DNA from: Sedimentisphaerales bacterium
Lineage (GTDB): Bacteria; Planctomycetota; Phycisphaerae; Sedimentisphaerales; SM23-30
Length of the DNA: 64,000 nt
Strand: one strand, 5' to 3'
Assembly: GCA_963666285.1 (NCBI GenBank)
Contig: OY762711.1
A program made the translations under genes and the position numbers. This document shows, in pieces, positions 7,696 to 52,686 of this stretch. Under the pieces are notes generated by a model. The model was not told the DNA's origin. It did no database searches and saw only the letters and a program-made list of their open reading frames with translations. The first letter of the stretch is position 1; every line of letters starts with the position of its first letter.

Positions 7696-7761
7696 GGAAA
7701 GAGAATTTTAATATTGTTCTGCCCGTTTCGGCGGGCAGAACATTTGCAAAGGATTGCGGGA

Positions 7762-8427: not shown

Positions 8428-8436
8428 GGAGTAAAG

Positions 8437-8793
8437 ATGAAAAGACTAATATATTTGGCCTCTCCGTATTCGCATGAATCGGAAGCTATTAAAGAAAAGC
8501 GTTTTGAACTGGTTTGTGAATATGCAGCGGGGTTAATGAAACAGGGATTGTTTGTGTATAGCCCTATAGCACATACTCACCCGATATCCCGCTATGGCTT
8601 GCCAGGTGATTGGGATTTCTGGGAAAGTTATGATACTTTGATGATAAGTAAATGTGATGAGATAAAAGTGCTGCAAATCCCCGGTTGGCAAGAGTCAAAA
8701 GGTGTACAAGCAGAAATACAACTTGCTAAAGAACTGAATAAGTCAATTAGTTACATACCTATTAATAACGCAGAAAAATACAACTATGAATAA
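8437..8793 (+). CDS. DUF1937 / nucleoside deoxyribosyltransferase-like protein
   Basis: IYLASPYSH, SPIAHTH, PGWQESKGVQAEI. Confidence 0.88.
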   Translation: MKRLIYLASPYSHESEAIKEKRFELVCEYAAGLMKQGLFVYSPIAHTHPISRYGLPGDWDFWESYDTLMISKCDEIKVLQIPGWQESKGVQAEIQLAKELNKSISYIPINNAEKYNYE

Positions 8794-12308: not shown

Positions 12309-12722
12309 ATGCCAGGCCCACCGAAAACACCAACGGCTATTTTAGAGAAGCGTAATAGCTGGCGTGCTAAAGTGCGTCATAACGAGCCTGAAACTATCGG
12401 CCTGCCAGAGCCGCCGGAATGGTTAGACGGTGATGCTCTGGCCCATTGGGATAGATGTGTACAGAGACTTGTAAACATGAATATAGCGGGTGAGGCTGAC
12501 GCTGATAAGCTGGCTATATATTGTGTTACTTATATCAAGTTTCGGGATGTTTGCCGTAATAACGATGACCCTAAGCAGCTTGATAAGATGGTAAAGGCTG
12601 CACAGTTGATAGACAGGCTTGGTTCACAGTTCGGGTTCAGCCCATCGGCAAGGGCTAATATGGCTATTGAAATGCCTAAAAAGGACGTAGAGAAAAAGAA
12701 ATTCTTTAGAGATCGTGAGTAA
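12309..12722 (+). CDS. Terminase small subunit (P27 family)
   Basis: MPGPPKTPT..., PPEWL, FGFSPSAR. Confidence 0.92.
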   Translation: MPGPPKTPTAILEKRNSWRAKVRHNEPETIGLPEPPEWLDGDALAHWDRCVQRLVNMNIAGEADADKLAIYCVTYIKFRDVCRNNDDPKQLDKMVKAAQLIDRLGSQFGFSPSARANMAIEMPKKDVEKKKFFRDRE

Positions 12723-14332
12723 TGGACTACCCCGATTATTTACAACTTATACCGGATTATGACCCGGTTGCAACAGCCGAGGACTGTACTTTTGACGCTG
12801 AAATTGCGCAGCTTGCTATTGATTTCTTTGCTGAAGAGTTGTGTTTAATCGAGGGTGTACCGGGTTATCCTGCCTTTATCCTTGAGGCATGGCAAAAGGC
12901 TATTATCGCTAATCTGTTCGGCTGGCTGCGTCCTGATGGCACTAGGCGTTATACCGAAGCGTTTTTAATGATACCACGTAAGAACGGTAAAACCCCGCTT
13001 ATGGCAGGTGTGATTAACCATATAGCCTATAATGAGGATGAGCCAGGCGGTCAGATATATTCCAGTGCCGGGGAAAAGAACCAGGCCGCTTTGATATTCC
13101 GTCATGTAGCGGGCATGATTCAGCGTAATCCAGAGCTTGACAAGCGGGCCAAGATATACAAGACCTATAAAAGTGCCGAATTTTACGGCGGTGACTGTAT
13201 CTATAATGCTCTTTCTGCTGACGCTAATACCAAGCATGGTCAGAACGCCCATTTGATTATCAATGATGAGCTGCATGTACATAAAACAAGGGATTTGATT
13301 GATACCCTGGAAACGTCCACCGCTTCACGAAAGCAGCCTTTAGTAATTCATATTACTACTGCCGGATATGACAAGGAAACAATCTGTTATGAAAAATATG
13401 ATTATGCCTGTAAGGTTCGTGACGGTGTTATAAATGACAGTTCATTCCTGCCTGTTATCTATGAAATCAAGCAGGCTGATTATGACCGCTGGGATGATCC
13501 GGCTGTATGGGAATATTGCAACCCGAATTTAGGTATATCGGTTAATCGTGACTATCTGGAAAAGCAGTGTCAGAAAGCAAAGGCAATCCCGGCAAAAGAA
13601 AACACCTTCAGGCGTTTACACCTGAACCAGTGGACAGAGCAGGAATGCCGCTGGTTAAGTGTTAAGGCGTGGCAGGATTGCAATGTCGAACTTAGAAATG
13701 ATAACGGTATTATCTGGATCGGCGGGCTTGACCTATCAACTACAACAGATTTAACGGCCTTTACTGCTTTGGGTTTTGATTCGCTTGGTAATCTGCACTG
13801 GCATAGCTGGCCTTTTATCCCGAAAGATAATGCAACCAAGCGGGAACATCAAGACGGCGTTCCTTATCTGACCTGGGCGCGGCAAGGTAAAATCACTCTT
13901 ACAGATGGTAATGTAGTTGATTATAACGTGATTCAGGATCATATATTGAAAATGCACCAGATATATAACTTTGCTGAAATAGCTTATGACCCATATAACG
14001 CTACTCAGATGATATTAAACTTACAGGATAAAGGCATAGAATGTACGCCTTATGGTCAGGGTATAAAGAATATATCCCCGCCTTGTAAAGCTTTAGAGGC
14101 TTTGTTACTGGCTGGCAAAATCGCCCATGATGACCATCCTGTATTAAACTGGTGCGTTTCTAATGTAACGGTCAAACAGGATGAAAACGAAAATATCAAG
14201 CCTGTCAAGCCTAAGAACTTTAAGCGTATCGATATTATTGTTGCCGGTCTAATGGCTTTAGGCCGGTTAATTACAGAGAACCACGAAACCCAAGAATCAA
14301 TTTATGAGGAAAGAGACCCTTTTACATTCTAA
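12722..14332 (+). CDS. Terminase large subunit
   Basis: PRKNGKT Walker A, DELH, GGLDLS, KRID. Confidence 0.97.
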   Translation: MDYPDYLQLIPDYDPVATAEDCTFDAEIAQLAIDFFAEELCLIEGVPGYPAFILEAWQKAIIANLFGWLRPDGTRRYTEAFLMIPRKNGKTPLMAGVINHIAYNEDEPGGQIYSSAGEKNQAALIFRHVAGMIQRNPELDKRAKIYKTYKSAEFYGGDCIYNALSADANTKHGQNAHLIINDELHVHKTRDLIDTLETSTASRKQPLVIHITTAGYDKETICYEKYDYACKVRDGVINDSSFLPVIYEIKQADYDRWDDPAVWEYCNPNLGISVNRDYLEKQCQKAKAIPAKENTFRRLHLNQWTEQECRWLSVKAWQDCNVELRNDNGIIWIGGLDLSTTTDLTAFTALGFDSLGNLHWHSWPFIPKDNATKREHQDGVPYLTWARQGKITLTDGNVVDYNVIQDHILKMHQIYNFAEIAYDPYNATQMILNLQDKGIECTPYGQGIKNISPPCKALEALLLAGKIAHDDHPVLNWCVSNVTVKQDENENIKPVKPKNFKRIDIIVAGLMALGRLITENHETQESIYEERDPFTF

Positions 14333-17300
14333 TGTTACCGGAAATTATAAAAAAGAATAAAGACGAGGTATTAGATGAGCTTGTTAGTGTTATTATGGTT
14401 GCACGTAATGAAAAGCTGCTTGGTAAAACCTTAAATAATATGCAGCAGATGTCAGAAGGCCCGATAGAGTTCATTGTTTTACTTGATGGCCCAAATGATG
14501 AGCCGATTGATATAGCAGGTGCAAAGACTACTATTATCACCCTGAAAGATAATATAGGCAGAAGGCCCGCAACTGACAAGGCTGTTTCTTATGCTAAGGG
14601 TAAGTATGTATTTCATATAGATTCACACTGTAAAACCGATGTTTTCGGTTGGGATACTATATATAAGCAGCTATGTATTGATAAGCGTACTATGGTAATT
14701 CCAGACCTTGACGCTTTGTTAGTAGATAAATACAAAAGCAAAGGCCGTCGAGCTGGTCATAAATATATTGATGTTCGCTATAAAGATCAATGGAGCGGCG
14801 TTAAGACCCAGGGCCGTAATGAATATACCATTACTGGTAACGGTATGGGCTGGTTTCTGGAAAAGCAGTTTTATGATGCTTTTAATGGCTGCTGTAAAAA
14901 ACAGCCTGCCCGGTGGGGTAATTTCGGGGTTGAATGGGCCTCTAAAGTCTGGCTTTCTGATCCATACGGCGAGGGTATCGGCGGTAAGGTTATATTGTGC
15001 GGTGAAGTGCCGTTTGCTCACATGTGGAAAACAGGCGGCACAGGCTATAATACACCGGGGGTATCTAAAGGCAGGCAGGATTTATTCAAGTGGTTTAATG
15101 GTACAGGTGAGAATCAGTGCCGGGAATTTAGCTTTTTTGAAACTGAGCTTAAACACTTACTGCCTAAAAGGGTTAAGCATGAACATAAACGGCCTTTAAC
15201 TGTCTCATTACCGCCTGTCGCTGTTGTCAATTGTGACAAGCCCGCTGTAACGGCGATAATGAATACAAACGGTCTTTACCCACATTTAGACGCTGAGGCC
15301 ATAGAAAGCTTTTTACGGCAGGATTACGAAAATAAGCAGCTTATTATAGTTGCAACAAATCCAACATACAAGCTTGATAAGAGCTATGAAAATATTACAG
15401 TAATCAACCATGAACCGTTTAACCGTTTCCCGCAGCAGATAGCCTATGCCTTAAAGCAGGTTAAAACGCCGCTATGGTGCATTATGGATTCAGATGATGT
15501 ATTTAGTTCTGACCATATAAGCAGACTTGTAAAGCTATATCACAGGGCTAAAAGTGACGGTCTGGAAAGTCCCGGCTATGTGGTAAATGATACAGCCTGG
15601 GAACAGGTAAAAAATAACTGGCCTAAACGCCGGGAGCGTGGCTGGTGGTGTTGCCTGTATGAAAAGGTTGATAGTACCTTTATTGATGAGGTATTCAATG
15701 ACTTTCTAGCTAGTAAACAGAAAGATACCGGCAGCGACTTACATTTCATTAAAAATCAGGAATGGAACTGGATTAAATACCATAATGAAAAAGCGACCGT
15801 ATTGCACCGGCTCGGCGTAGGCTTCCATATCAGGAATGAACATAGTAAGCCAGGCTATTACAGAAATTCAATAGAAAAGGTCAAAAATAACATATTAGAG
15901 CCAATTATACCCGGTTGGCAGAAAGATTATAATGATATGATAGATAACTTTAACAATCCCGCTATTACCTGCATTATGAATACATTTCAAAGGGATAGAG
16001 CAACACTTGAAATAGCTGTAAATTCCTTTTTGAATAATGACTATGAAAATAAAAAGCTTCTTATTGTCAACAGCAATCCTAAACCGCTATGGATTAATGG
16101 CTATCACCCATGTATTGAAGTTGTAAATATTGCACCTTCTGACCATATAACCGAGTTTAAGCAAGCCTTAAATTATGTTAAAACATCGCATGTATCAATC
16201 CTTGACGATGATGACCGGGTAAGTATTAACCACGTTGGACAGATAGCAGAAGCTCTAAAAGCCAATAAGTTCAAGAATATTATCAATCTGAACTTTGAGG
16301 AAATGGATTGCAGTAATATCAAGCCTGGAAATATGTCCGGGCCGGTAAAGCAGCTTAAAAAACTTATGTGGTGGAATGGTGTCTATCGTACTGATGATAT
16401 GCGTAAAGTTGATATCGGTACAGACCTGCAAGGCTTTGATAAACGTATTATGGCAGCTTTAGCACCGCTTGAACTTGACTTGCCTGTTACTTATACATGG
16501 TGTCGCAACCATGTAATACATGAAAGCAAGTCCGGCAGAAACGCCCATAAAAACAAACTGGATCGGATTGCAAGAGCCAGAGCCGAGGCAAGCCCGCAGC
16601 CTATTACATTGGATTATACATTAAGTGAATACCCCGAAGTTACTGTAGTTTGCTGCACGTATGGCGCACATAAACACCGTACCGAAGAAATGTTAGAATC
16701 ATTTTTACGGCAGAGCTATCCAAAGGCAAGGCTTTTATTGCTTAATACCCATAAAGACCCTATTGTATTTCAGCAGCGGTATAGCAATATAGATGTTGTG
16801 GAAATGCCGGGCCATAACTTCGATACCCTTGCCAAAAAGCATGAACACGCTATCAGTCTGGTTAAAACACCTTATTGGATGATTTGTGATGATGACGATA
16901 TTATGCTGAAAAATCACATATTAACCTTAATGCAGGTCAATTACTGGAATAAGCGAGGGTATCATAAACCATCAAATAAACGGCCTTTGCAATCTTCACA
17001 TGAACGCAAGATTGTAATGTGTAATAATGATTATGCCTTTATCAAGAATGGTTCGGGCTGGACTTGTGCAGCATTTGAGACAGTGAGCCGGGATAAGCTG
17101 GCAGCCAAGTTTAGCAAACCTGTAAAGGGTTTGCCTGATAACTGTTACGATGGCCGGGTTCGTTTAAGTTCATGGCATGAGCAGCGTATCAGTTACCCAT
17201 TTTTACCGGGCTATGTCTGGCGTGGCGGTGGTAATGGATTTCACTTATCTATGACCGGAAAAAACAAGCAGTTAGCCGATTATGCCTATGAAAATGCCGA

Positions 17301-17907
17301 GCAGCGGGCAAACCTTATTAATAATGGTACTTGGCATCCGCATTTTGAAAAAGACTATAATAGCGAATTTGCGGCGTTTCTGTACAAGGCAGAAGAAAAG
17401 CGGCTGCATGGCAAAAATGCTTTTTATGTTCATTTGGATGATAAAGGTGCTATGCGTACAAAGGAATTTAACTTTGTTGTTGATTTCCTGAAGCAGCATA
17501 ATATCAGCAAAATAGTAGAGTTTGGCTGTGGTGCTTCTACTCTTTCCTTTGCTTCACTTGGCTTTGATATTACCAGCTATGAAACAAGTCAGTATTGGCA
17601 TGATAAAATTAGGCTGCTATTAGACCGGGATTGTATCAAGTTATATGATGGTGCAGCCATTAATTTGCCTGTACATGACTTTATTATCATTGATGGCCCA
17701 GACCCACCGGAAACAAGGGAAGAATCATTTATCGCTGCTGTTAACTCAAAGAGTAAATACATTGCCTGTCATGATATATTCAGAAAGCAGGAGCAGGATT
17801 TAATCAGTAAATACCTGATTGGCACAGGTTACAGGGAAATAGCCAGGCTTGAACCAAGTAAAAAACATAAACTGCATGGAGTAGCTATATATGGTCTTGG
17901 CAATTGA
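14332..17907 (+). CDS. Multidomain glycosyltransferase (GT27-like + 3x GT2-like) with C-terminal class I methyltransferase
   Basis: FHIDSHC, DSDD, DDDD, DDDD motifs in four repeated GT-A starts; VEFGCGAST...IDGP methyltransferase. Confidence 0.88.
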   Translation: MLPEIIKKNKDEVLDELVSVIMVARNEKLLGKTLNNMQQMSEGPIEFIVLLDGPNDEPIDIAGAKTTIITLKDNIGRRPATDKAVSYAKGKYVFHIDSHCKTDVFGWDTIYKQLCIDKRTMVIPDLDALLVDKYKSKGRRAGHKYIDVRYKDQWSGVKTQGRNEYTITGNGMGWFLEKQFYDAFNGCCKKQPARWGNFGVEWASKVWLSDPYGEGIGGKVILCGEVPFAHMWKTGGTGYNTPGVSKGRQDLFKWFNGTGENQCREFSFFETELKHLLPKRVKHEHKRPLTVSLPPVAVVNCDKPAVTAIMNTNGLYPHLDAEAIESFLRQDYENKQLIIVATNPTYKLDKSYENITVINHEPFNRFPQQIAYALKQVKTPLWCIMDSDDVFSSDHISRLVKLYHRAKSDGLESPGYVVNDTAWEQVKNNWPKRRERGWWCCLYEKVDSTFIDEVFNDFLASKQKDTGSDLHFIKNQEWNWIKYHNEKATVLHRLGVGFHIRNEHSKPGYYRNSIEKVKNNILEPIIPGWQKDYNDMIDNFNNPAITCIMNTFQRDRATLEIAVNSFLNNDYENKKLLIVNSNPKPLWINGYHPCIEVVNIAPSDHITEFKQALNYVKTSHVSILDDDDRVSINHVGQIAEALKANKFKNIINLNFEEMDCSNIKPGNMSGPVKQLKKLMWWNGVYRTDDMRKVDIGTDLQGFDKRIMAALAPLELDLPVTYTWCRNHVIHESKSGRNAHKNKLDRIARARAEASPQPITLDYTLSEYPEVTVVCCTYGAHKHRTEEMLESFLRQSYPKARLLLLNTHKDPIVFQQRYSNIDVVEMPGHNFDTLAKKHEHAISLVKTPYWMICDDDDIMLKNHILTLMQVNYWNKRGYHKPSNKRPLQSSHERKIVMCNNDYAFIKNGSGWTCAAFETVSRDKLAAKFSKPVKGLPDNCYDGRVRLSSWHEQRISYPFLPGYVWRGGGNGFHLSMTGKNKQLADYAYENAEQRANLINNGTWHPHFEKDYNSEFAAFLYKAEEKRLHGKNAFYVHLDDKGAMRTKEFNFVVDFLKQHNISKIVEFGCGASTLSFASLGFDITSYETSQYWHDKIRLLLDRDCIKLYDGAAINLPVHDFIIIDGPDPPETREESFIAAVNSKSKYIACHDIFRKQEQDLISKYLIGTGYREIARLEPSKKHKLHGVAIYGLGN

Positions 17908-17993
17908 TATTTGTCTATTGGGCGTGATATATAGGGTTTCAATATTGTTATTTTATCAAGCGATTAAATGTTTAAATACACGAGGTGTATATG
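17901..17993 (+). promoter_or_regulatory. Conserved late leader/promoter motif, copy A
   Basis: CAATTG-N13-GGGCGT-N14-CAATAT-N11-CAAGCG...TACAC-GAG-GTGTA-T-ATG; matches 22650-22738. Confidence 0.6.
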
Positions 17994-18680
17994 GAAGAGA
18001 ATAATAAAGCTGTTGTGATCCGCTGGTATGGGCCTGGAACACCTAGAATTATAGACCCTAGCTGTATTACTAAAGGTTGGGACTATATATTTCTGACAGA
18101 TGATTTATCACATAATAGTTCTGATATATGGGAATCGCTTTTAATGCGTTTCCCAGGCTATAGCGGTGAACATGAATCGAAGATCATCAAGGCTATGTTT
18201 CCAATAATATATCCTAAATATGATTGGTGTGTAATTATCGATACTGAAAAGTATATCATTGATTCAGACCTGGACGCTCTTATCTACCAGTTACAGCCTG
18301 AAACAGAATTTGCAGCGTTAAGGCATAGAGTAACAAATTGTACCTATCACGAAATAGCACGCAACCGCAAGTATAAAAGGGATAGTAACGAGGCTTTAGA
18401 TGCCATAACTACAACAAACCTTACAACAAACCTACCTGTTAAATCTGGTTTATATGACACTTCTATAGTAATTTATAAATGTACAGAAAAGATGTGTGAA
18501 GCTCTTAAAACATGGGCTGAAATGATAAAGGTTTGTAAGCGTGACCAGTGCAGTATAGTAACTGCCATGCGTGAACATAAAGTTAATACCGAATATTTAC
18601 AGCTTGCTAATTACAAGCACTATAAGAAGCTAAGGCCAACAAGTAACGTATATGCTGAAAAGTCTATTGAACATATTTAA
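17991..18680 (+). CDS. DUF616 (TOD1/MUCI70-like) glycosyltransferase-like protein
   Basis: GWDYIFLTD, PKYDW..IID, H...CTY.E, GLYD.S, RDQCS. Confidence 0.8.
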   Translation: MEENNKAVVIRWYGPGTPRIIDPSCITKGWDYIFLTDDLSHNSSDIWESLLMRFPGYSGEHESKIIKAMFPIIYPKYDWCVIIDTEKYIIDSDLDALIYQLQPETEFAALRHRVTNCTYHEIARNRKYKRDSNEALDAITTTNLTTNLPVKSGLYDTSIVIYKCTEKMCEALKTWAEMIKVCKRDQCSIVTAMREHKVNTEYLQLANYKHYKKLRPTSNVYAEKSIEHI

Positions 18681-19881
18681 GGCAAGCGAAAAGCCCCAGA
18701 AGAAAAGTCCTTATGATGACTTCTGGTATTCTGCTATACCTGCTTTGTCGGCGGCTGGCGTTCCGGTTACACCTGAGAACGCATTAAAGGTTAGTGCGAT
18801 ATGGGCCTGTAACAAGGTTATATGTGAGACAATAGCATTATTGCCATTTCTGACATATCAGAAACAGCCGGACGGCGGTAAGCAGCGAGCCGAGAACCAT
18901 TATTTGTATTTACTGCTTAAAGAATCGCCTAACAAGATTCAGACAAGCTTTGAATGGCGTATGACGCTATTAACACATAAAAACCTTTACGGGCGTGCAT
19001 ATAGCCCGATTAAGCGTGATTACTTTGGCAATATAATAGAGTTTGGTTTACCGATACACCCGACCCAGGTACAGAACCAGTTAATGACCGATGATACTTT
19101 ACGGTATAAAGTGACAAGGAACGGTGAAAGCCGCATATATTTACAAGATGAAATGCTGTATTTACCTGGTATTACTTTGAATGGTTATGATGGTATATCA
19201 CCTATTGAAGCGGGCAGCGATACTATCGGGTTGGCAAGGGCTACCGAGTTATTTGGTGCTAAGTTCTTTCAAAAAGGAGCAAGGCCGAACGCTGTATTAG
19301 AACATCCTAACACCTTATCGGAAACCGCACAGAAGCGACTTGTCAAGTCTGTAAAGCGTATGGCAGAAGAAGGCGTATTAGTTACTGAGGAAGGTATTAA
19401 ATATTCTTCAATGTCAAATACGCCGGAAGAATCGCAGTTTTTACAGACCCGCCAACACCAGATAGAGGAAGTATGCCGCTGGTATCGTATGCCGCCGCAT
19501 AAGATAGCACATTTACTTAGATCGACCTTTACCAATATAGAACACCAAAGCTTAGAATTTGCGACAGATACTATTTTACCGCAGGTTAAAAGCTTTGAAG
19601 GCCGTATAAAGAAAACTGTATTAACTGGTGATGATTACTTCTGTGAAATGCTAATGGAAGGCTTGTTAAGAGGTGATATCAAAACCAGACAGGACGCATA
19701 TACAAAGGAATTTTACCGGGGTACATTGTCTCGTAATGAGATACGGATTTTAGAAAACCGAAACCCTATCCCCGGTGGTGATAACTATTACATGCAAACA
19801 AACATGACCAGAATTAGCGAAGATGGCACAATTGAAAGTTCTGGTATTGAACAGGTGAAAGAGCCAACAGATGAAGAATAA
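18652..19881 (+). CDS. HK97 family portal protein
   Basis: ENALKVSAIWAC, GYDGISPI, QFLQTR, PPHKI, LLRGD, NEIR..EN. Confidence 0.97.
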   Translation: MLKSLLNIFKASEKPQKKSPYDDFWYSAIPALSAAGVPVTPENALKVSAIWACNKVICETIALLPFLTYQKQPDGGKQRAENHYLYLLLKESPNKIQTSFEWRMTLLTHKNLYGRAYSPIKRDYFGNIIEFGLPIHPTQVQNQLMTDDTLRYKVTRNGESRIYLQDEMLYLPGITLNGYDGISPIEAGSDTIGLARATELFGAKFFQKGARPNAVLEHPNTLSETAQKRLVKSVKRMAEEGVLVTEEGIKYSSMSNTPEESQFLQTRQHQIEEVCRWYRMPPHKIAHLLRSTFTNIEHQSLEFATDTILPQVKSFEGRIKKTVLTGDDYFCEMLMEGLLRGDIKTRQDAYTKEFYRGTLSRNEIRILENRNPIPGGDNYYMQTNMTRISEDGTIESSGIEQVKEPTDEE

Positions 19882-27015: not shown

Positions 27016-27819
27016 ATGTCAGTAGTATATACAGATTTAATCGATGGTGACGCTGCAACCTATACCCGACGTGGTTGGGAAAATATCAGCCGTTCAGCTT
27101 TGGTAAGTGGTATTAGCCCAAGTATTAGCGGTCATGCAAAGATAATGCAGGCTTTTAATATATTAGAGCTTGATATTGGTATGCAGCATCCAAGTTTTGA
27201 CAATAACTATATCCGTTCTATTTCGCCGACTTCGATAGCTTCTGATACTGTAACATTCCTAATACAGTATGAGCAAATGACCGGCTTTGCAGATGAAATA
27301 AGCGGCGGTGGTGGACTGATACAGATTGAAACTAACCTGGATCGGAACGGCAAAGCAATTGTTTTAGAATACACGTATCCTGATGACTATGCTATTGATA
27401 TAAAATATGCCGGGCAGACAGATAAAGTAAGCAAGTTAATAGCTGTTGATAAGTCAGTTGTGCCATTGTCAATTAAACGCAGACAGATATTTTCTGCTAT
27501 TCAGAAGCCTCAGCAGCTTGCGGAAAGCTATGTCGGTAAAGTCAATAGTGATAACTGGTCTGTTGCCTTTGATGGTGCAACTCGCAGATGGAAATGTACA
27601 GGTATAGACTTTAATTATGTACTTCCAATATTTAATTCAGGCAAACAGTATGTTTATGATATGACATATCAGTTTCAATATAATTCTAACGCCTGGAATG
27701 AGTCGCTTATTTATGTTGACCCCAATACCGGCAATCCGCCCGAAGATGCCGAGGCAGATGAATTTGAAGTATTAGACCAGATAGCTTTTAACAGCCTTAT
27801 TGACAGTATAATTACATGA
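27016..27819 (+). CDS. Putative tail (distal tail/hub) protein
   Basis: Position after tape measure; beta-rich. Confidence 0.55.
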   Translation: MSVVYTDLIDGDAATYTRRGWENISRSALVSGISPSISGHAKIMQAFNILELDIGMQHPSFDNNYIRSISPTSIASDTVTFLIQYEQMTGFADEISGGGGLIQIETNLDRNGKAIVLEYTYPDDYAIDIKYAGQTDKVSKLIAVDKSVVPLSIKRRQIFSAIQKPQQLAESYVGKVNSDNWSVAFDGATRRWKCTGIDFNYVLPIFNSGKQYVYDMTYQFQYNSNAWNESLIYVDPNTGNPPEDAEADEFEVLDQIAFNSLIDSIIT

Positions 27820-29252
27820 GCAGAAATTCATATAAAATTGAAAAATTTACACAAGGCCCGCATTCGACCGTTAAGCGTCTGAACCAGGTTATAGACACAG
27901 TAAATACGCTATCCAGCCGTAAAACAAGTGTTATCAATGGTAAAGTGCTTAAAGATGATATGGTCTTTGGTATTATAAATAGTACCGAGGTAGATGATGA
28001 GGGTTATTTCAGGGGTACATTATTTAATCGTGAAAATGAAGAAGTACCGGAAACAAATCCTTATTATGATATACTGATAAAGTGTCAGATAGCCGAATAC
28101 CCAAATGTATTAAAGAACAACTACTTTACTGCTATCAGGAATAAAATACAAGATGAATGGTATTGTACTGGTATCTATGTAGGTGATGCCAGTTCGTTAA
28201 GTTCATTCCTTAGCTCTGAAACTGAAAGCAGCTCGAAACATTCGAGCGATAGTTCAGAGTCAACAAGTGGCAGTTCTGACGGCACAACAGCAAGTTCATC
28301 ATATAGTTTTTCCAGTGAATCAAAATCTATAAGCAGCAGTTCATCATTATCAAGCTTTAGTTCTTATGATAGTTCTGGCAGTTCCGGTACATCTGCAAAA
28401 AGTTCTCATAGTTCAGGGCATAGTTCAAGTTCAGTGGATAGTTCTGGTAGTTCAGATGGCAGTTCGGGCAGTTCTGACCATACTTCCGGTAGCTCATACG
28501 AAAGTACAGGCAGTTCAGATTTAACATCGGGTAGTTCAGACGAAAGTTCCGGCAGTTCGGATAACACTTCTGGTAGTTCAGGTAGTAGCTCAGGTAGTTC
28601 TGACTATACGTCGGGTAGTTCAAGTGTAAGTTCTGGTAGTTCTGACCATACATCAAATAGTTCTGATAGAAGTAGTGGCAGTTCAGATCATACATCAGAA
28701 TCACGTAAAAGCTCAAGCAGTCGTGATTTCAGTACGCCACCGCCTTTGTCTAGTTATAGTTCCTGGGATAGTTCCGGCAGTTCTGAAGATGAATCTTCCT
28801 CTAGTTCCGGTGATTCATCAGATAGTTCAGCTTCAAGTTCTGGCAGTTCTGCTAGTTCAAGTGGCAGTTCCAGTAAAAAGTCAAGCTCTAGTTCTGGGGG
28901 GAGTTCCAGTTCAAGTTCTGACAATTCCTCAAGTAGTTCAGAGGGTAGTTCCAGCGAATCATCTTCAAGCGATTTGCCGATAGAAGTTGGCGGCGATTGC
29001 TGTTTATGTAGTATGTTAAGTGGCAAAGATGTTACTGTTGGTTGGGGAGGTGGTACTGGCGGTTATTCCGGTGGTAGTTGTGCTTCTAATATAGCTATAG
29101 ATTGTGGTGGTATTAGTGGAGCTGGTACATATACAGTTTTATGTCCAGGCAATAAAAAGGTAACTGTGTCCGTTGGCGGCGGTGAATATTGTGCAAGTTG
29201 TTGTAACGCATATTTTGCCGATGCTGTAATTGATAGTATAGAGTATTTATAA
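27816..29252 (+). CDS. Putative tail protein with ~260-aa Ser-rich tract and Cys/Gly-rich C-terminus
   Basis: Translation; overlaps the upstream tail gene. Confidence 0.8.
   Translation: MSRNSYKIEKFTQGPHSTVKRLNQVIDTVNTLSSRKTSVINGKVLKDDMVFGIINSTEVDDEGYFRGTLFNRENEEVPETNPYYDILIKCQIAEYPNVLKNNYFTAIRNKIQDEWYCTGIYVGDASSLSSFLSSETESSSKHSSDSSESTSGSSDGTTASSSYSFSSESKSISSSSSLSSFSSYDSSGSSGTSAKSSHSSGHSSSSVDSSGSSDGSSGSSDHTSGSSYESTGSSDLTSGSSDESSGSSDNTSGSSGSSSGSSDYTSGSSSVSSGSSDHTSNSSDRSSGSSDHTSESRKSSSSRDFSTPPPLSSYSSWDSSGSSEDESSSSSGDSSDSSASSSGSSASSSGSSSKKSSSSSGGSSSSSSDNSSSSSEGSSSESSSSDLPIEVGGDCCLCSMLSGKDVTVGWGGGTGGYSGGSCASNIAIDCGGISGAGTYTVLCPGNKKVTVSVGGGEYCASCCNAYFADAVIDSIEYL
28191..28970 (+). repeat. Ser-rich coding repeat, core heptad x(S/T)SGSSD (21-bp period)
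   Basis: About 12 consecutive heptads from ~28438; recurring GGYAGTTC DNA motif. Confidence 0.92.
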
Positions 29253-29253: not shown

Positions 29254-30372
29254 ATGGTTGTAGTATTAGAAAAAAATAATCTTGTACATGAATATCCAGA
29301 ATGTTTCCATAGGGTAGGTAATATTTGCCTGTATGGTTCCAGGCGGACAGGTAGAGCATGTAGGGTAAATGAGGTATTTTGTAAATTCTTATGTGCTGCT
29401 AAAGGCGGCCCATGTAATAAAGAATGTAACGGCAATGAGCCAAAAGCCGTATTTAAAAAGATGTTTGGTAAATCGATGCCTTTTCTTAATTCATTATTTA
29501 TAGAAAAGATACTCAAGAAATATTTTGGTACATTTGAAATCAAAGTGCCGGGAATGTGGGAACTAATAAAAAAAAGCTTCCAGCCGGTATTAGATGAGTT
29601 TGACGACTGTTTAGGCGGTGTGCTTATAACAGGCTCTTTAATGGTTGTTGGTGCACCATTGAAAGACATAGATATTTTACTTGAGGTTAAGGATGAAAAG
29701 CTATTTGGTCAGAAGTATGACGAGATAATATCAAAGGTTCCCAAAACAGTTAATAATATTACGGTGGATTGCTTTTTCTGTTTTGATAAGCATAAGAACT
29801 TTTTTATGTTGATGAACCCTGATAAGCGAGAGGTTTATACAAGTGAGTTTTTTGAACCATCAATTGTTAACGGTAAAGAGTTTAATATTGTATCTTCTGA
29901 TAATCCGTACTATTCAGATGGCTTTGTTGCTATGGTAGAATTTTTGTATGAATATAATGCTGATACTAAATTCATTATCGATGAAATTGAACGTATAAAA
30001 AAGGTATATGGTGAGGAAGTCGTTAATCATATATTGGCTTTACAAGCTAAGTATAGAGACAGTATCGAAGCTTTACAGAAATGCTATACCTGCCAGTATT
30101 ATAGAAATAAATGCAATAATTGTTCCCCATATTGTTTATGGTTAACCAGGCAAAAAAATCTAATTGAATGGCTGAAAAATGGGAATGCCTGTCCATTAGA
30201 TAATAATGCTGCATTGCAATCTGATGATAGCAGCTTTTGCCGTAAAAAGAGTATGTGTACTAATTGCAAGTATTATATTGAAAGTAGTGATATGTGCCTG
30301 TATTTAACCAGGGCAACAAATCTAAACAACTGGATCAAGCAGGATAACGCTTGCCCGCTTAATAAATTCTAA
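29254..30372 (+). CDS. Cys-rich protein with central nucleotidyltransferase-like motif
   Basis: LITGSL...KDIDILL...VD; duplicated C-terminal CxxCxYY...CLxLTR..NL..W.K...ACPL. Confidence 0.6.
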   Translation: MVVVLEKNNLVHEYPECFHRVGNICLYGSRRTGRACRVNEVFCKFLCAAKGGPCNKECNGNEPKAVFKKMFGKSMPFLNSLFIEKILKKYFGTFEIKVPGMWELIKKSFQPVLDEFDDCLGGVLITGSLMVVGAPLKDIDILLEVKDEKLFGQKYDEIISKVPKTVNNITVDCFFCFDKHKNFFMLMNPDKREVYTSEFFEPSIVNGKEFNIVSSDNPYYSDGFVAMVEFLYEYNADTKFIIDEIERIKKVYGEEVVNHILALQAKYRDSIEALQKCYTCQYYRNKCNNCSPYCLWLTRQKNLIEWLKNGNACPLDNNAALQSDDSSFCRKKSMCTNCKYYIESSDMCLYLTRATNLNNWIKQDNACPLNKF

Positions 30373-36140: not shown

Positions 36141-36153
36141 GGAGAATTAAATT

Positions 36154-46985: not shown

Positions 46986-48320
46986 TTATATATGTTATTG
47001 TGCTGGTGAGCCTGGGAGCCAGGTCTATAGTGCAGCAGCTTCAAGGGAACAGGCTTCCCTTATCTATAATGATATGGCAGCTATGATAGAGAGGAATCCT
47101 TCTCTCTCAAAGAGAGCCAATTTAACTAAAGCCTATAAAAAAATAGAAATTGAGTCTAAAGAGGAATGTGTTTTTAAGTCTCTTTCTTCTGAGGGAAAGG
47201 TTTTACATGGTCTAGATATATATGCACTATGTATAGATGAACTTCATTGTATCTCTGACAGGGAATATTTAGCGGCTCTCACAACGGCTCAGGGAGCAAG
47301 AAAGAACCCTCTTACTATATATATAACTACTGCTGGAGTCTATGAGCCTAATAGCCCTTGTTATGAGAAATATGATTATTCTAAAAAGATAATTGAGGGA
47401 GTTATTCAAGATTCTTCATTTCTCCCTGTTATATTTGAAGCTGATAAAAATATAGATTGGCGAGAAGAGGAAACATGGAAACAGGCTAATCCTAACTTGG
47501 GTGTTTCTGTATCATTAGATTATCTAAAAAAGAAATGTGAGGAAGCTAAAAACCTTCCTTCAGAAGAGAATAATTTTAAGAGACTCCACCTTAATCTATG
47601 GACAGAACAATTAGATAGATGGCTCCCTATGGAAAATTGGAATGAGTGTGATGAACTGCCTTCCAAGGATAATTCTATAAAATGGTATGGTGGTCTTGAT
47701 ATGTCTACAGTTACAGACTTATCTTCATTTGTTTTAGTGGGAGAAGATGAAGAAGGATATTTCCATGTTCATACTTGGGCGTTTATTCCCAAGGATAACA
47801 TAACAAGAAGAGAAGAAAGAGATAAGGTTCCCTTCTCTGTATGGGCTAAAGAAGGAAAGATAGAACTAACAGAAGGAAACTCAATAGACCATGATTATAT
47901 AAGGAAAAGAATAGGAGAGATTGCTGAAGAGTTTGAGATAAAAGAAATAGCAGTAGATAGAGCTAATGCAACTCAGATAATAACTCAACTAATGGGAGAT
48001 GGTTTTGAAATTGTCCCTCATGGACAAGGTTTTCTCTCTATGAGTTCTCCTTCAAAGTTTTTAGAAACTCTTCTATTGCAGAAGAAAATTAAACATGGAG
48101 GACAGCCTGTTTTAAGATGGTGCGCTAGTAATGTTACAGTTGAAACAGATGCTTGTGAAAACATAAAACCTTCTAAAAAGAAGTCAATAGAAAGAATTGA
48201 TAGTATTGTTGCCTTAGTTATGGCATTAGGGAGACTGATTTCAACTGAAATAGTTGAAGAAAAAGAATCTGTTTATGAGTCAAGAGGAATATTAAGTTTT
48301 TAAGATTGGGAAAAGGGAAT

Positions 48321-51300
48321 ATGGGAGACAAGGAAATAATTAAAATCAATAATAGAAATCCATTTGTTCAAAAAATAAATGAAGCTTCAAATCCTTATAA
48401 CAAGGGAAATAGTATATTCAATGTTAGAAAGAAACCATATGAAGAAGTTAAGGAAGAATTAGTTTCTGTTGTTATCCTGTCTAGAAATGAAGAATTTTTA
48501 TCTCAGACAATAAATAATATGTCTGAGCTGGCTGAGGGACCAATTGAGTTTGTTATAGTTTTGGACGGGGACTATGAACCTGAAAAGATAATTGATGTTA
48601 ATGAAACTCTTCACAGGTCTCATTCTATTCAGTTTGTTTGTAATAAAGAGCCACTAGGGAGAAGACCTTCTTCAAACCTTGGAGCAGAGAGAGCAAGAGG
48701 GAAATATCTTTTCCATTTAGATGCTCATTGCAAAACTGATTGTAAGGCATGGGACACATTACTTAAACAGTCTGTAACTACTCCTTCTACTATGGTTATT
48801 CCTTCCCTGAATAAACTTATTGTTCCTGAATATAAGCAAGTTGGGAATAGGAATGGACACAAGTATATAAGTGTCAATTTTAAGGACCAATGGTCCGGAA
48901 ATAAGGGAAGATATAACTTAGAACCTACTATAACAGGAAATGGAATGGGATGGTTTTTGACAAAGGAATATTATTTATCCTGTGGAGGTTGTGATGTTTC
49001 TTCTCCTGCTTATGTATGGGGAAACTTTGGTATAGAATGGGCTTTGAAAACTTGGCTATGTGATTTTGGTTTAGGAGCTGGACAGGTCCTTCTTACAACT
49101 GAAGTTGTCTTTGCTCATTTATGGCAAAAGAAACTTCCATATAAACAGCCAGGAATAGGGAAAGATAGAAACAGATTAAAAGAAATGTATCTTGATGGAA
49201 AAGCCCCTAATCAAGTTAGACCATTTTCATTCTTTGAAGAGAACCTTGGACACCTTCTCCCTAAAAATAAAGAGACACCTGAGAAACAGCCTTTAAGAGT
49301 TCTACAGGAAGAAACTGAACCTGATGTAACTGTCATTATGAATACTAACGGTCTTTATCCCGATTTGATTGAGGAAGCAATTCAATCATTTATAAATCAG
49401 GATTATCCAAATAAATATTTGAAAATAGTTTCAACTAATAAACATTTGAAACTTGATAGAGAATATGAAGATATAGAAATTATTTATGTTGAACCATTTG
49501 AAAGATTCCCACAACAGATTCAATATGCTTTGAAACAAGTTAAGACTCCTTATTGGTGTATTATGGATTCAGATGATGTTTTCAGTTCAGACCATATTTC
49601 TAAGCTAGTAAAAATAATGTTAAGGGAAAAGAAGAATGGATTAAAAAGCCCTTGTTATGTAGGGATTGATGGAGCCATAGAGCATTGGGTTAATAAAGGA
49701 ACTCCTAAACTTAGAAATAGAGGGTGGTGGTCTTGTCTTTATGATAGAGTTCCTGATGAAAAGATAGATGAAGTATTCAATGAGTTTCTTAATAAGAGAA
49801 ATAAGGACACAGGCTCAGACTTGCATTTTATAAAGAAAGATTTTTGGAATAAGAAACTAGTTCAAGGGAAAAAGACAGCCTATCACAGATTAGGAGTAGC
49901 TTTCCATATTAGAAATGAAAGATGGAAGGATAATTATTATAAAAACTCATTAGAGACTGTTAATAACTATGTTCCTCCTGTATTGGTTCCCAAATGGAAA
50001 AAGGATTATGATAAAATGATAAATGATTTTAATTATCCAAGAGTTACTTTGATTATGAACACTTTTCAAAGGGACATGAAGACTCTTCAAGAATCCATAT
50101 ATTCTTTCTTATGCCAGGATTACCCAAATAAGAAACTTCTGATAGTTAATTCTTCCCCAAAAAGATTAGTTCATAGAGGTTATTCTCCTGATGTTGAAGT
50201 TATAGATATTAAATCTTCTCACCATTTACAAGAGTTTAAGAATGCTTGTAAACACTTGATAGAGAATGCAGGAGATAATGAGTTCTTTTCTATTTTTGAT
50301 GATGATGATGTTTTAAAGCCTAATCATATTTCCCAAATGGTCCAAAATCTTCAGAAAAACAAGTTCAAATCTTGTATAAATAGAAACTATGTAGATTTCA
50401 ACATAAAAAGAAATTCGGGGAAAGAAGTATCTAAGCTTATGTGGTGGAATGGTATTTATCCTGTCTCTCTTTTAGAGACTATTAAATTAGGAACAGATTT
50501 AGAAGGCTTTGATAAGAGATTCATGGAACAGGCTAATCCTGTTGAATATGATGGAGAAGCAACATATATATGGCAAAGAGGAAATGTTATCCATGAATCC
50601 AAAACTAATAAAAACTCTCATGAAGAGAAATTAGATAGGATGAAGAGAGCTAAGGAAGAAGCTATGAACAGGAAAGATGATATCCCCGTTTATGTCAGAC
50701 CTTATATCCCTGATCCACCTATGATAACTGTTTGTATGGTTACTTATGGAAGTCATAAGGCTAAGACTGAAGAAGCTATTCAATCTTATATAAATCAATC
50801 ATATAAGTTTAAGAAATTACTAATTCTGAACACTCACAAGGACCCTATTAAGTTAGAAACTGAATATTCAGATATAGAGATTATAGAATTGCCTAATAAG
50901 AAGTTTAACTCTTTGGGAGAAAAACATGAATATCTAATAAATCAGGTAGATACTCCATATTGGACTGTTCTTGATGATGATGATATTATTCTCCCTTGGC
51001 ACCTTGAAACCTTGGCTTCTGCATTAGTTCATAATAGAGCTAGTTATGATAAGCCTTCACACAAGAGACCTTTATTAACAGGACATAATAGAAAGATTAT
51101 CTCCGTAGATAATAAGTATTCATATATAAAGAGTGGTTCAGGTTGGACCTGTCGAGTATTTGAGAAGTTGAGTCCTGATAAGGTAAGAGGGAAATTACAG
51201 AAGAAAATTAAGGGAACAAGTGAATGTAATTATGATGCTAGGTTCTGTTCTGGGAAATGGCACTCATTTATATTAAATTATCCTGTTCTTCCTTCTTATG

Positions 51301-52007
51301 TATGGAGAGGAGGAGGAGATAATTTCCATCTTTCAGCAGCAGGAGACACAGATGAAGTATTCAATAATGCTTTTAATAATGCTGAGGATGAAGCACAAAA
51401 AATAGATAATTCTTCTGTTTGGGTTCCTCATTGGGAAAAAGACTATGTTAAAGAGTTCTATTATTTTCTTAATATAGGAAGTCATAAACAAATATTTGGA
51501 AAGAATCATCATCATTTAAGACTAAGTTCCTCAGGAGCCATAAGGAAGAAAGAATTTCATTTCCTGAATGATTTCTGTAAAGAACATAATGTTAAGAATA
51601 TAGTTGAGTTTGGTTCAGGAGCCTCTACTCTCTCTTTCTCTTTGGAAGGATATAATATAACTTCCTATGAGACTAGTGAATATTGGCGTGACAGAGTTAG
51701 ACTATTCCTGAGTTATGACCCTATTAAAATGTGGGATGGAAAAGCATTTAAATTAGAAGAAGATGTAGATTTAGTTTTCATAGACGGTCCAGACCCTCCT
51801 GATTCAAGGGAAGAATCATTCAAGACAGCTATAACTAGTAATGCTAAATATATAGCTGCTCACGATGTATTCAGGCATATAGAGCAAAATTTTATTGAGA
51901 AATATCTTCTTCAGAATGGTTATAAGGAGATTGCAAAGATAGGACCAACAAAAGGAGTAAAAGGACCTAATAAACTAAGAGGGATAGGGATATATGGGAA
52001 AGAATAA
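48321..52007 (+). CDS. Multidomain glycosyltransferase (GT27-like + 3x GT2-like) with methyltransferase; homologue of 14332
   Basis: FHLDAHC, DSDD, DDDD, DDDD, VEFGSGAST; long blocks identical to the prophage 1 copy. Confidence 0.88.
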   Translation: MGDKEIIKINNRNPFVQKINEASNPYNKGNSIFNVRKKPYEEVKEELVSVVILSRNEEFLSQTINNMSELAEGPIEFVIVLDGDYEPEKIIDVNETLHRSHSIQFVCNKEPLGRRPSSNLGAERARGKYLFHLDAHCKTDCKAWDTLLKQSVTTPSTMVIPSLNKLIVPEYKQVGNRNGHKYISVNFKDQWSGNKGRYNLEPTITGNGMGWFLTKEYYLSCGGCDVSSPAYVWGNFGIEWALKTWLCDFGLGAGQVLLTTEVVFAHLWQKKLPYKQPGIGKDRNRLKEMYLDGKAPNQVRPFSFFEENLGHLLPKNKETPEKQPLRVLQEETEPDVTVIMNTNGLYPDLIEEAIQSFINQDYPNKYLKIVSTNKHLKLDREYEDIEIIYVEPFERFPQQIQYALKQVKTPYWCIMDSDDVFSSDHISKLVKIMLREKKNGLKSPCYVGIDGAIEHWVNKGTPKLRNRGWWSCLYDRVPDEKIDEVFNEFLNKRNKDTGSDLHFIKKDFWNKKLVQGKKTAYHRLGVAFHIRNERWKDNYYKNSLETVNNYVPPVLVPKWKKDYDKMINDFNYPRVTLIMNTFQRDMKTLQESIYSFLCQDYPNKKLLIVNSSPKRLVHRGYSPDVEVIDIKSSHHLQEFKNACKHLIENAGDNEFFSIFDDDDVLKPNHISQMVQNLQKNKFKSCINRNYVDFNIKRNSGKEVSKLMWWNGIYPVSLLETIKLGTDLEGFDKRFMEQANPVEYDGEATYIWQRGNVIHESKTNKNSHEEKLDRMKRAKEEAMNRKDDIPVYVRPYIPDPPMITVCMVTYGSHKAKTEEAIQSYINQSYKFKKLLILNTHKDPIKLETEYSDIEIIELPNKKFNSLGEKHEYLINQVDTPYWTVLDDDDIILPWHLETLASALVHNRASYDKPSHKRPLLTGHNRKIISVDNKYSYIKSGSGWTCRVFEKLSPDKVRGKLQKKIKGTSECNYDARFCSGKWHSFILNYPVLPSYVWRGGGDNFHLSAAGDTDEVFNNAFNNAEDEAQKIDNSSVWVPHWEKDYVKEFYYFLNIGSHKQIFGKNHHHLRLSSSGAIRKKEFHFLNDFCKEHNVKNIVEFGSGASTLSFSLEGYNITSYETSEYWRDRVRLFLSYDPIKMWDGKAFKLEEDVDLVFIDGPDPPDSREESFKTAITSNAKYIAAHDVFRHIEQNFIEKYLLQNGYKEIAKIGPTKGVKGPNKLRGIGIYGKE

Positions 52008-52686
52008 GAAAGTTATATACACTTCTTATTTTGGGAATAGAGGAGGAATTATAGAACCTTCTTATATATCCCCAGGATGGGACTATGTATTTTTCACTGA
52101 CAACGAATATATATATGATTTGAGTAAGAAACATCTATTAACTTGGAAGATAGAATATATTCCTACTACTACAGAAGAAACAGACTCAGAAATTAGAGCA
52201 AAGTTCTATAAAATTGTTTCTCATGCCTTTTTTCCTGAGTATGAATATTCCATATATATAGATTCTGACAAATACAAGATAGATTGTAACCTTGATAGAT
52301 TTATAGAAAATACTCTTTCTCCTGATTCTGTTTTTGCTTCTTTGAAGCATAGAAAATGCGATTGCACATATAAAGAGATTGAGAGACAGAGAAAAAGAAA
52401 AAGGGATTTTGATAAAAACTTCGATGATATAAGGGATAGATGTATAGATTCAGGACTTCCTGAGCATTGGGGATTGAATGATAATTCTATAGTTGTAAGG
52501 AAACATTGTTCAGAATTATATATAGTTATGAATAATTGGTGGTTAGAAGTTGCTAAGTATTGCAAGCGAGACCAATGTTCCTTAATGAAGGTTTTATATG
52601 AATCAGGTCTTCCATTTAATCAGTTGGAATATGAAGGATTTAAGAATTATAAAACTATGAGATATTTGAGTAGAATCTCAAAATAA
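51994..52686 (+). CDS. DUF616-like glycosyltransferase-like protein
   Basis: VIYTSYFG, GWDYVFFTD, FPEYEYSIYID, GLP..GL.D, WW.EV..RDQ.S. Confidence 0.85.
   Translation: MGKNKKVIYTSYFGNRGGIIEPSYISPGWDYVFFTDNEYIYDLSKKHLLTWKIEYIPTTTEETDSEIRAKFYKIVSHAFFPEYEYSIYIDSDKYKIDCNLDRFIENTLSPDSVFASLKHRKCDCTYKEIERQRKRKRDFDKNFDDIRDRCIDSGLPEHWGLNDNSIVVRKHCSELYIVMNNWWLEVAKYCKRDQCSLMKVLYESGLPFNQLEYEGFKNYKTMRYLSRISK

Follow-up and report, generated by a model that had tools for sequence, protein, structure and literature searches.

We analyzed a 64,000-nucleotide (nt) stretch of contig OY762711.1 (Sedimentisphaerales bacterium, assembly GCA_963666285.1), hereafter the window; the host genome is near-complete (97% by marker genes). 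Two prophages in the window each carry, between the genes for the large terminase subunit (terL) and the portal, a cassette of two genes that encode a large five-domain enzyme and a small putative glycosyltransferase (GT). The cassette of prophage 1 and its flanking genes are listed here, with protein lengths in amino acids (aa).

12309-12722, plus strand: terS, which precedes terL
12722..14332, plus strand: terL (Pfam TerL_nuclease, E 1.5e-48; TerL_ATPase, E 1.3e-29)
14332-17907, plus strand: five-domain enzyme, open for 1191 aa
14332..15231, plus strand: domain 1, a GT27-like GT-A domain resembling polypeptide N-acetylgalactosaminyltransferases (ppGalNAc-Ts), with Asp97-x-His99 plus His230
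15232..15936, plus strand: domain 2, a GT2-type GT-A domain with DSDD (Pfam PF00535, E 2.9e-9)
15937..16611, plus strand: domain 3, a GT2-type GT-A domain with DDDD (Pfam PF00535, E 1.4e-6), a domain 2 paralogue
16612..17331, plus strand: domain 4, a GT2-type GT-A domain with DDDD (Glyco_tranf_2_3, E 3.1e-5, below cut-off), a domain 2 paralogue
17332..17907, plus strand: domain 5, class I methyltransferase-fold by model and Foldseek, with EFGCGAST and IIDGPDPP (no Pfam match)
17985 (GTG) or 17991 (ATG) to 18680, plus strand: small TOD1/MUCI70-like putative GT, 231 aa (PF04765, E 0.005, below cut-off)
18652..19881, plus strand: portal (Pfam Phage_portal, E 3.5e-86)

Downstream of the portal, prophage 1 continues with genes for an S49 protease, an HK97-type capsid, an adaptor, head closure, neck, a tail terminator, a major tail protein, chaperones and the tape measure. 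An earlier annotation of this DNA from its letters alone (the sequence-only reading) had described the enzyme gene as translationally coupled to terL and the small GT gene as overlapping the portal start, and both junctions are as it described them: the ATG of the 1191-aa open reading frame (ORF) shares its A with the terL stop codon (TAATG at 14330-14334), and, beyond a gap of 77 nt, the small GT gene runs 29 nt past the portal start at 18652. The likely start of the small GT is the ATG at 17991, because this matches the start of its prophage-2 paralogue. The same reading had recognized four GT-A domains in the 1191-aa ORF, and Pfam Glycos_transf_2 indeed matches it in four stretches (E 8.7e-30); the domain starts that it placed at ~14370, ~15240, ~15960 and ~16635 lie no more than 15 nt from the first strands at nt 14383, 15247, 15964 and 16639, and the motifs that it read are found at residues 97-99 (DSH), 386-389 (DSDD), 625-628 (DDDD) and 853-856 (DDDD).

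Prophage 2 carries the same cassette at the same position, again as had been noted, in the order terL, large GT, small GT, portal.

45331-45654, 45686-46969 and 46972-48303, plus strand: terL split by an insertion sequence (IS) into, respectively, an N-fragment (E 2e-28 to TerL residues 5-101), a DDE transposase and a C-fragment
48306..52007, likely start ATG 48321, plus strand: five-domain enzyme, 1233 aa (Pfam GT2 in four stretches, E 1.6e-31)
51994..52686, plus strand: TOD1/MUCI70-like small GT (Pfam PF04765, E 7.1e-12, 45.7 bits)
52780..54336, plus strand: portal (Pfam Phage_portal, E 1.7e-109)

The terL N-fragment of prophage 2 holds the Walker A region and the C-terminal 443 aa lie beyond the transposase; with its terL split by the IS, prophage 2 is probably packaging-defective. 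Its GC content is 0.33 versus 0.40 for prophage 1. A third copy of the cassette, with an enzyme 92% identical to that of prophage 1, is found in the same genome at G000:C1:979752-983324. The third prophage that houses it (G000:C1 ~966870-997400, loci L012 and L013) is reversed, shares 84-94% DNA identity with prophage 1 (window 153-30580) and has its own cassette and its own Ser-rich tail gene. The large enzymes of prophages 1 and 2 share 50% identity over 1210 columns, a divergence that equals that of the flanking genes (terL, 49%; adaptor, 50%) and indicates that the cassette is old in this lineage and not a recent insertion. Between prophages 1 and 3, the ratio of nonsynonymous to synonymous substitution rates (dN/dS) is 0.11 over the enzyme gene and 0.07-0.13 for the individual domains, compared to 0.08 for terL; all five domains are thus maintained by purifying selection.

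To place domain 1 among known GTs, we used a profile made from an alignment of domain 1 and 70 relatives (71 sequences), across which G76, D97, H99 and H230 are invariant. In a separate Pfam scan, domain 1 matches PF00535 with an E of 2.2e-8 (34.6 bits; gathering cut-off, 23.3). Against the Protein Data Bank (PDB), however, the 14 best matches of the 71-sequence profile are all ppGalNAc-Ts, aligned over the whole catalytic domain with a best E of 1.4e-33; the matches include ppGalNAc-T1, T2, T4, T7, T9, T10 and T12 and the Toxoplasma GalNAc-T3. GT27 enzymes bind their metal by an Asp-x-His motif and a distal His, possess a Gal/GalNAc-T motif of sequence WGGENxE and, as whole enzymes, comprise a C-terminal ricin-type lectin domain and a type II membrane anchor. 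In the hidden Markov model (HMM) alignment, D97, H99 and H230 fall on the DAHC and GHVFRK sequences of GalNAc-T1, and the DxH, WG..G.E and H.FR regions are aligned; WGNFGVEW of domain 1 aligns to WGGENLE of ppGalNAc-T as an altered form of the motif in which G196 and E201 are nearly invariant. The AlphaFold 2 (AF2) model of domain 1 (mean predicted local distance difference test score, pLDDT, 92.3) retrieves ppGalNAc-Ts, which are of GT-A fold, in keeping with the fold that had been assigned; in the Foldseek search of the PDB, ranks 1-48 among the matches listed are all ppGalNAc-Ts (E 1e-14 to 9e-13), with query-normalized template modeling (TM) scores of 0.65-0.74 and 14-17% identity to the solved enzymes. 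A BFVD fold search returned only unnamed or uncultured viral GTs. Pfam finds no ricin-type lectin family in domain 1 or in the rest of the enzyme, and there is no N-terminal membrane anchor. On the strength of these profile and fold matches, we assign domain 1, from its sequence and predicted structure, as a soluble, lectin-less and anchor-less relative of the GT27 catalytic domain and not as a generic GT2 domain, an identity that is new relative to the sequence-only reading; by whole-enzyme architecture it is not a full GT27 member.

We also examined how the family is distributed. A whole-protein profile search of 1.84 billion representative proteins yielded many relatives of domain 1, 94 of them at E ≤ 1e-30 and 1055 when the limit was E ≤ 1e-10. 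All five domains occur together only in P0005 and P0008 among the representatives, and also in P0001, P0006 and P0007. Single-protein scans of genome contigs and of viral contigs for relatives of the 1191-aa protein gave none, a scan with an 11-sequence alignment gave one genome locus, no viral loci and five metagenome loci, and a tblastn search of 50,697 GenBank phage records, with either the whole protein or domain 1 as query, gave no match.

Domains 2, 3 and 4 are, as judged by their similarity, generic GT2-type domains and paralogues of one another (BLASTP of domain 3 to domain 2, E 3e-13; of domain 4 to domain 2, E 4e-16). Scanned separately with PF00535, domain 2 scores 37.5 bits (E 2.9e-9) and domain 3 scores 28.8 bits (E 1.4e-6), while domain 4 falls under the curated cut-offs of both PF00535 (E 1.1e-3, 19.4 bits; cut-off 23.3) and Glyco_tranf_2_3 (E 3.1e-5). 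A domain-2 profile finds heparosan synthase B and SpsA in the PDB at E ~3e-6, and stand-alone relatives of domain 2 exist; domains 3-4, as a single sequence, have no match in the PDB, and the best match of the whole protein in a single-sequence PDB search is GalT1 of the Fap1 pathway (5hea, E 1.4e-3). Domain 5 had been called an S-adenosylmethionine (SAM) methyltransferase. Its AF2 model (pLDDT 77.6) does match class I O-methyltransferases in Foldseek, namely, metal-dependent enzymes of the CCoAOMT/COMT type (E 2e-6, TM ~0.5), and the EFGCGAST and IDGPDPP motifs are conserved in six of six full-length sequences, but Pfam gives no match even at E ≤ 1. In the relative P0009, a Methyltransf_24 domain is fused at the domain-5 position, and in other relatives a Methyltransf_24 or a GT9 heptosyltransferase domain lies downstream of a conserved domain 1-domain 2 core, which suggests that the C-terminal part is a swappable finishing module. 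The label of DUF616-like GT, a family that we take to be that of TOD1/MUCI70 (PF04765), fits the small GT of prophage 2 (45.7 bits), whereas its prophage-1 homologue (36% identity, E 6e-45) reaches 16.6 bits, under the cut-off of 21.4.

Ser/Thr tracts are the substrates of the solved enzymes to which domain 1 is similar (PMC3417536), and we therefore searched the phage proteins for them; the tail module of prophage 1 encodes a candidate acceptor.

27816..29252, plus strand: Ser-rich protein of 478 aa in the tail-tip position, candidate acceptor of prophage 1, immediately downstream of the tape measure and a 267-aa gene

This protein consists of an N-domain of ~125 aa, a tract of ~265 residues and a Cys/Gly-rich C-terminal domain. 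The tract (residues 126-390) is 56% Ser, is built of SSGSSD-type repeats and uses all six Ser codons. The tape-measure gene is assigned to phrog_9483 (E 3e-62), and neither the Ser-rich proteins of the window nor the 267-aa gene product have a family in Pfam or PHROGs. All three cassette-bearing prophages encode such a tail-module protein, of 478-488 aa and 39-41% Ser/Thr: prophage 3 has an orthologue, and the prophage-2 counterpart (488 aa, 39% Ser/Thr) occupies the same position just outside the window. In distant relatives, too, a Ser-rich gene immediately precedes the domain-1-type enzyme gene at four of four loci examined, its product being strongly Ser-rich at L002, L004 and L005 (22-24 Ser/Thr in 30 residues) and moderately so at L001 (13 in 30); L003 was left out of this comparison and L006 has no upstream sequence. 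L001 is a Phycisphaerae metagenome-assembled genome (MAG) of the same family as the window genome. The residues that precede the Ser tract look alike by eye (WYCTGIY / WLCTGIF / WWCTGIY); BLASTP of P0161 and the L005 protein is not significant. The large proteins of L001 and L005 have no BLASTP similarity to the tape-measure or 267-aa proteins of the window.

We then asked how often Ser/Thr-rich genes accompany this enzyme in viral contigs. The 71-sequence alignment is too diverse for a locus scan, and IMG/VR was therefore scanned with eight closer domain-1 relatives; of 175 pattern matches, 116 encode a relative, and 80 were kept, corresponding to 76 loci. A gene counted as S/T-rich if any stretch of 40 residues in its product held 22 or more Ser/Thr, and was scored if it lay within 8 kb in a simple greedy ORF set. 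Such a gene is present at 33 of the 76 loci (42 of 1152 genes) and, after merging of enzymes that are at least 70% identical, in 29 of 65 clusters, compared to 0 of 39 control loci (0 of 421 genes) drawn at random from IMG/VR by means of an arbitrary 15-mer (Fisher p of 1e-7 for the 76 loci and 6e-8 for the 65 clusters, in tests that ignore relatedness). All 42 S/T-rich genes lie on the enzyme strand, but so do 1060 of the 1152 genes overall; their rate peaks at positions -1 (7/76), +2 (8/62) and +4 (7/50) relative to the enzyme. The tracts consist of poly-Thr, poly-Ser or SPSxS-type repeats, and 34 of the 41 S/T-rich proteins scanned have no Pfam family at E ≤ 1e-4. Where families are found, they are Laminin_G_3 (two proteins), Gly_rich_2, Sipho_Gp37 and Ig_3 (one each) and a weak Mucin match (two, one of them on the Ig_3 protein); some of the survey proteins carry fibre- or adhesin-type domains. 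Among the 122 immediate neighbours of the enzyme in the 65 viral representatives are 11 methyltransferases (eight of them Methyltransf_24), six GT2 enzymes, two sulfotransferases, two UDP-glucose dehydrogenases, one DegT aminotransferase and one LicD protein. Each of the two sulfotransferase genes (L047:9334-9942 and L070:9298-9825) immediately precedes the GT27-like gene, on a contig that also encodes Ser/Pro-rich proteins, and this hints at sulfated phage glycans.

Another possible role of the cassette is in glycosylating phage DNA, with hypermodified bases as a means of evading restriction. Phage GTs that build DNA glycans do exist (Pyle 2024, cited in PMC12619734), and the cassette adjoins the packaging genes; domain 1 is nevertheless closest to protein O-glycosyltransferases, such a scheme does not account for the association with S/T-rich proteins, and the scanned early-region ORFs include only DNA methylases and a PAPS-reductase-like gene and no gene for hydroxymethyl-pyrimidine synthesis. 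We regard this explanation as highly improbable. As for the early regions themselves (window 7714-9556 and 37418-39468), both prophages encode DNA methyltransferases fused or adjacent to DUF3102, and the PAPS-reductase-like gene of prophage 1 is at 8786-9556.

A location between terL and portal turned out not to be a general trait of the homologues. In the four distant relatives examined, the enzyme gene is situated at the tail or integrase end, behind a Ser-rich gene; in the Phycisphaerae MAG, a split homologue adjoins the integrase. Among the 65 viral representatives, TerL (L046, L061) or portal (L085) is directly upstream of the domain-1-type enzyme in only three. These are unrelated IMG/VR contigs (L046:1565-3759, L061:1684-4153 and L085:5628-7983) in which the GT directly follows a T4-type large terminase or a portal gene, and the packaging-portal junction thus appears to be a recurrent home for such enzymes. 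The position between terL and portal is a lineage trait that comes back occasionally (3 of 65), not a defining one. A portal-anchored scan of IMG/VR gave a single relative of the portal, from provirus record G025 (locus L091). The terL and portal of G025 are 60% and 51% identical to those of prophage 1, which makes it a closer relative of prophage 1 than prophage 2 is (49% and 35%). In G025, terL is followed by the portal after 72 nt with no cassette between them, and no homologue of the enzyme is found in its 27.7 kb (a record rated 44% complete). After the G025 orthologues of the tape measure and the 267-aa gene come a 207-aa protein and then a 752-aa protein. The 207-aa protein corresponds to the N-domain of the Ser-rich proteins (35-37% identity over 118 residues, E 3e-12 to 9e-18) and lacks the Ser tract. 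Cassette and tract are thus jointly lost in G025 and jointly present in the three prophages, and enzyme and tract co-occur in this small set.

This pattern also bears on the possibility that the enzyme acts on other virion proteins, instead of or in addition to the Ser-rich one: the capsid, the tail tube or, in prophage 2, the following protein.

57370..59253, plus strand: collagen-like head-completion protein, possible second acceptor of prophage 2 (Pfam Phage_HCP, E 2e-19; Collagen, E 8e-17)

The placement of the cassette among head genes, from terL to portal, would suit such acceptors, as would the Ser-rich character of this collagen-like protein, and mycobacteriophage glycans are reported at the C-termini of capsid and tail-tube subunits (PMC12619734, citing Freeman 2023). 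However, no S/T-rich stretch occurs in the prophage-1 capsid and tail proteins, which reach 10 Ser/Thr in 30 residues at most, the ORFs examined in prophage 1 include no collagen-like protein, G025 keeps a collagen-like protein yet has no Ser tract in its tail protein, and in the relatives the enzyme gene adjoins a Ser-rich gene and not capsid genes. Acceptors of this kind are, in our view, unlikely. The collagen-like protein was considered as the main acceptor and rejected, because the cassette-less G025 retains a similar protein (L091:12518-14251). In the collagen-like protein, the head-completion domain is joined to a pair of long (Gly-Ser/Thr-Ser)n tracts, with a repeated globular unit after each of them, and the whole is probably a head or neck fibre.

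The physical properties and genetic context of the two enzymes speak to where and when they act. Neither has a transmembrane segment (maximum Kyte-Doolittle 19-residue mean of 1.07 for the large enzyme and 1.17 for the small GT), and no hydrophobic segment that could represent a membrane segment or a signal peptide was found in either, which agrees with the sequence-only reading, as does the absence of gtrAB-type genes, there being no GtrA-like match among the Pfam-scanned ORFs (a part of the ORFs of the window). Promoter- and terminator-like sites around the cassette are not above chance, as scored by the consensus of sigma-70, to which this host may not conform. The overlap of the terL stop with the enzyme start, together with this lack of excess promoters and terminators, argues for late co-expression with the head proteins. 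It is against this background that lysogenic conversion, in which the cassette would alter a host surface glycan or glycoprotein, for example in superinfection exclusion, has to be judged. Phage GTs that change host serotype are well known (PMC12619734). The integrase-adjacent position of the split homologue in the Phycisphaerae MAG is typical of a moron, and the cassette is dispensable in the close relative G025. Set against these points are the missing membrane segments and signal peptides, the lack of a GtrA-type flippase among the Pfam-scanned ORFs, the coupling to terL with no separate promoter signal above chance, and the linkage of the enzyme to phage-encoded S/T-rich genes over viral contigs, and we consider conversion to be quite unlikely.

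The reading that we favor, and think reasonably probable, is that the cassette carries out a soluble, late-acting, cytoplasmic mucin-type O-glycosylation of the phage's own Ser-rich tail-tip protein, followed by extension and methyl capping. The enzyme would be made with the head proteins late in infection, and domain 1 would attach the first sugar, in the cytoplasm, to Ser hydroxyls of the ~265-residue tract of the 27816-29252 product. This sugar would probably be an N-acetylhexosamine (HexNAc) from a UDP-sugar, transferred with the aid of a divalent metal held by Asp97, His99 and His230. Extension of the chain would fall to domains 2-4 and the TOD1/MUCI70-like enzyme, the methyltransferase-fold domain 5 would O-methylate a sugar, and the modified protein would be built into the tail tip, which would thus bear a fibre or stalk coated with glycans in the manner of a mucin. 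The analysis shows the domain identities with the metal triad, the lack of membrane segments, the purifying selection, the co-occurrence with Ser/Thr-rich genes and the joint loss of enzyme and tract in one relative; we infer which protein is the acceptor, which sugars are used, in what order and when the steps occur, and any role in adsorption, protection or stability. The earlier proposal that one polypeptide initiates, extends and methyl-caps a virion glycan is in line with an initiating-type domain, three GT2 domains, a methyltransferase fold, a late operon and the lack of membrane segments; what changes is the acceptor, the best candidate among virion proteins now being the Ser-rich tail-tip protein rather than the capsid or tail tube.

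Several points weigh against this reading. The evidence consists of sequences and predicted models, and resemblance to ppGalNAc-Ts at 14-17% identity is no proof of a protein acceptor or of a HexNAc donor. In prophage 1, ~10 kb separates the enzyme gene from the Ser-rich gene, so that the two are not adjacent. No S/T-rich gene is found in the available DNA of 43 of the 76 viral loci, many of which are cut by contig ends; the Fisher tests take no account of kinship among loci, and the control loci are random positions that were not matched to tail regions or habitats. The cassette-less comparison is a single record, G025, 44% complete. Domain 5 has no Pfam match and only a moderate model, domain 4 and the prophage-1 small GT score under Pfam cut-offs, and the consensus of the promoter scan, that of sigma-70, may not suit the host.

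A wider reading, which we offer tentatively and with some doubt, is that many lineages of tailed phages possess a mucin-type O-glycosylation of their own, in which a soluble GT27 relative makes glycan "bottle-brush" fibres out of the Ser/Thr tracts that their tail proteins encode, the present case being one in which the pathway (initiation, three or four extensions and a methyl cap) is fused in one 1191-aa protein of the head operon. If so, a Ser tract with its glycan would replace a folded fibre shaft, as is suggested by the conventional 752-aa protein of G025. The eukaryotic mucin-initiating enzymes may, in addition, descend from the prokaryotic-viral family or be its sister group.

Among known systems, the GT27 ppGalNAc-Ts (mouse GalNAc-T1, 8v9q/1xhb; human GalNAc-T2, 2ffu/4d0t) are closest in the chemistry of domain 1, with which they share the GT-A domain, the metal triad and, in altered form, the WG..E region. 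Animal and apicomplexan ppGalNAc-Ts are associated with long Ser/Thr tracts as acceptors (PMC3417536), as the window enzyme is with such tracts. Domain 1 differs in having no lectin domain or anchor and in being fused to three GT2 domains and a methyltransferase-fold domain, and the lack of an anchor would make the window enzyme cytoplasmic and not Golgi-located. Next, for their design, come proteins of chlorovirus PBCV-1: A064R combines two rhamnosyltransferase domains with a methyltransferase and A111/114R contains three GT domains, and these soluble multidomain enzymes build a virion-protein glycan in the cytoplasm, which A064R methyl-caps (PMC7826918). The PBCV-1 enzymes belong to a eukaryotic virus, make N-linked glycans on the major capsid protein and have three domains, not five. 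Third are the mycobacteriophages, in which GTs encoded by the phage, frequently accompanied by a methyltransferase, act on its virion proteins (PMC12619734 and PMC13313380, citing Freeman et al. 2023); the reported acceptors differ, being the C-termini of capsid and tail-tube subunits. More distant are the serine-rich repeat (SRR) adhesins of Gram-positive bacteria (GtfA/GtfB, GalT1), the long Ser-rich repeats of which are O-glycosylated in the cytoplasm by sequential transferases before leaving the cell, a multi-step modification of Ser repeats comparable to the one proposed here. Glycosylation of SRR adhesins is initiated by a GT-B pair that adds GlcNAc, and their export uses an accessory Sec system, whereas the window initiator is GT27-like and its product would be assembled into a virion. 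GtrABC seroconversion shares with the cassette its prophage-borne glycosyltransferases. There, a membrane flippase and a membrane glycosyltransferase, working with a lipid carrier, alter the O-antigen, in contrast to the two enzymes here, neither of which has a hydrophobic segment.

Phage-encoded virion glycosylation has so far been documented in mycobacteriophages and multidomain viral glycan builders in chloroviruses; in a literature search that left subscription journals largely outside, we found no published GT27-like phage enzyme and no glycosylated Ser-rich phage tail protein. If the proposed function is true, mucin-type O-glycosylation exists outside eukaryotes, occurs in the bacterial cytoplasm and is widespread in uncultured phages (116 IMG/VR stretches) yet absent from sequenced phage isolates. 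Glycan-coated fibres would bear on phage adsorption, on protease resistance and on recognition by hosts or immune systems, and a single five-activity polypeptide could provide a compact means of building defined O-glycans in bacteria, on carriers rich in Ser. The window offers a tractable case, with a near-complete genome, three copies of the system, two of them ~90% identical, and a natural relative that lacks both enzyme and tract.

One further gene adjoins that of the Ser-rich protein.

29254..30372, plus strand: last gene of prophage 1, 372 aa, with two Cys modules (BLASTP to the N-terminus of P0010, E 7e-8 and 5e-7)

The Cys module of the 372-aa protein (C..C.YY...C..CL.LTR..NL..W...ACPL) also forms the N-terminus of GT27-like enzymes of relatives. 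Its center contains a GS...DIDILL motif and matches NTP_transf_2 clusters in the Atlas with a score of 0.89, a lead only, and from this sequence the center may be (minimal) nucleotidyltransferase-like; the protein as a whole may take part in the glycosylation system as a docking or partner module. Between the prophages (30582-36753), DNA of host-like GC content encodes a minus-strand PIN-domain protein (30582-31853), a 203-aa gene product and a 989-aa beta-helix/DUF11 protein (33171-36140). Finally, window positions 60001-62137 stand out by a GC content of 0.405 versus ~0.33 and a negative GC skew, and contain a 528-aa ORF (60551-62137, weak PEGA match) and a long antisense ORF (60557-61849).

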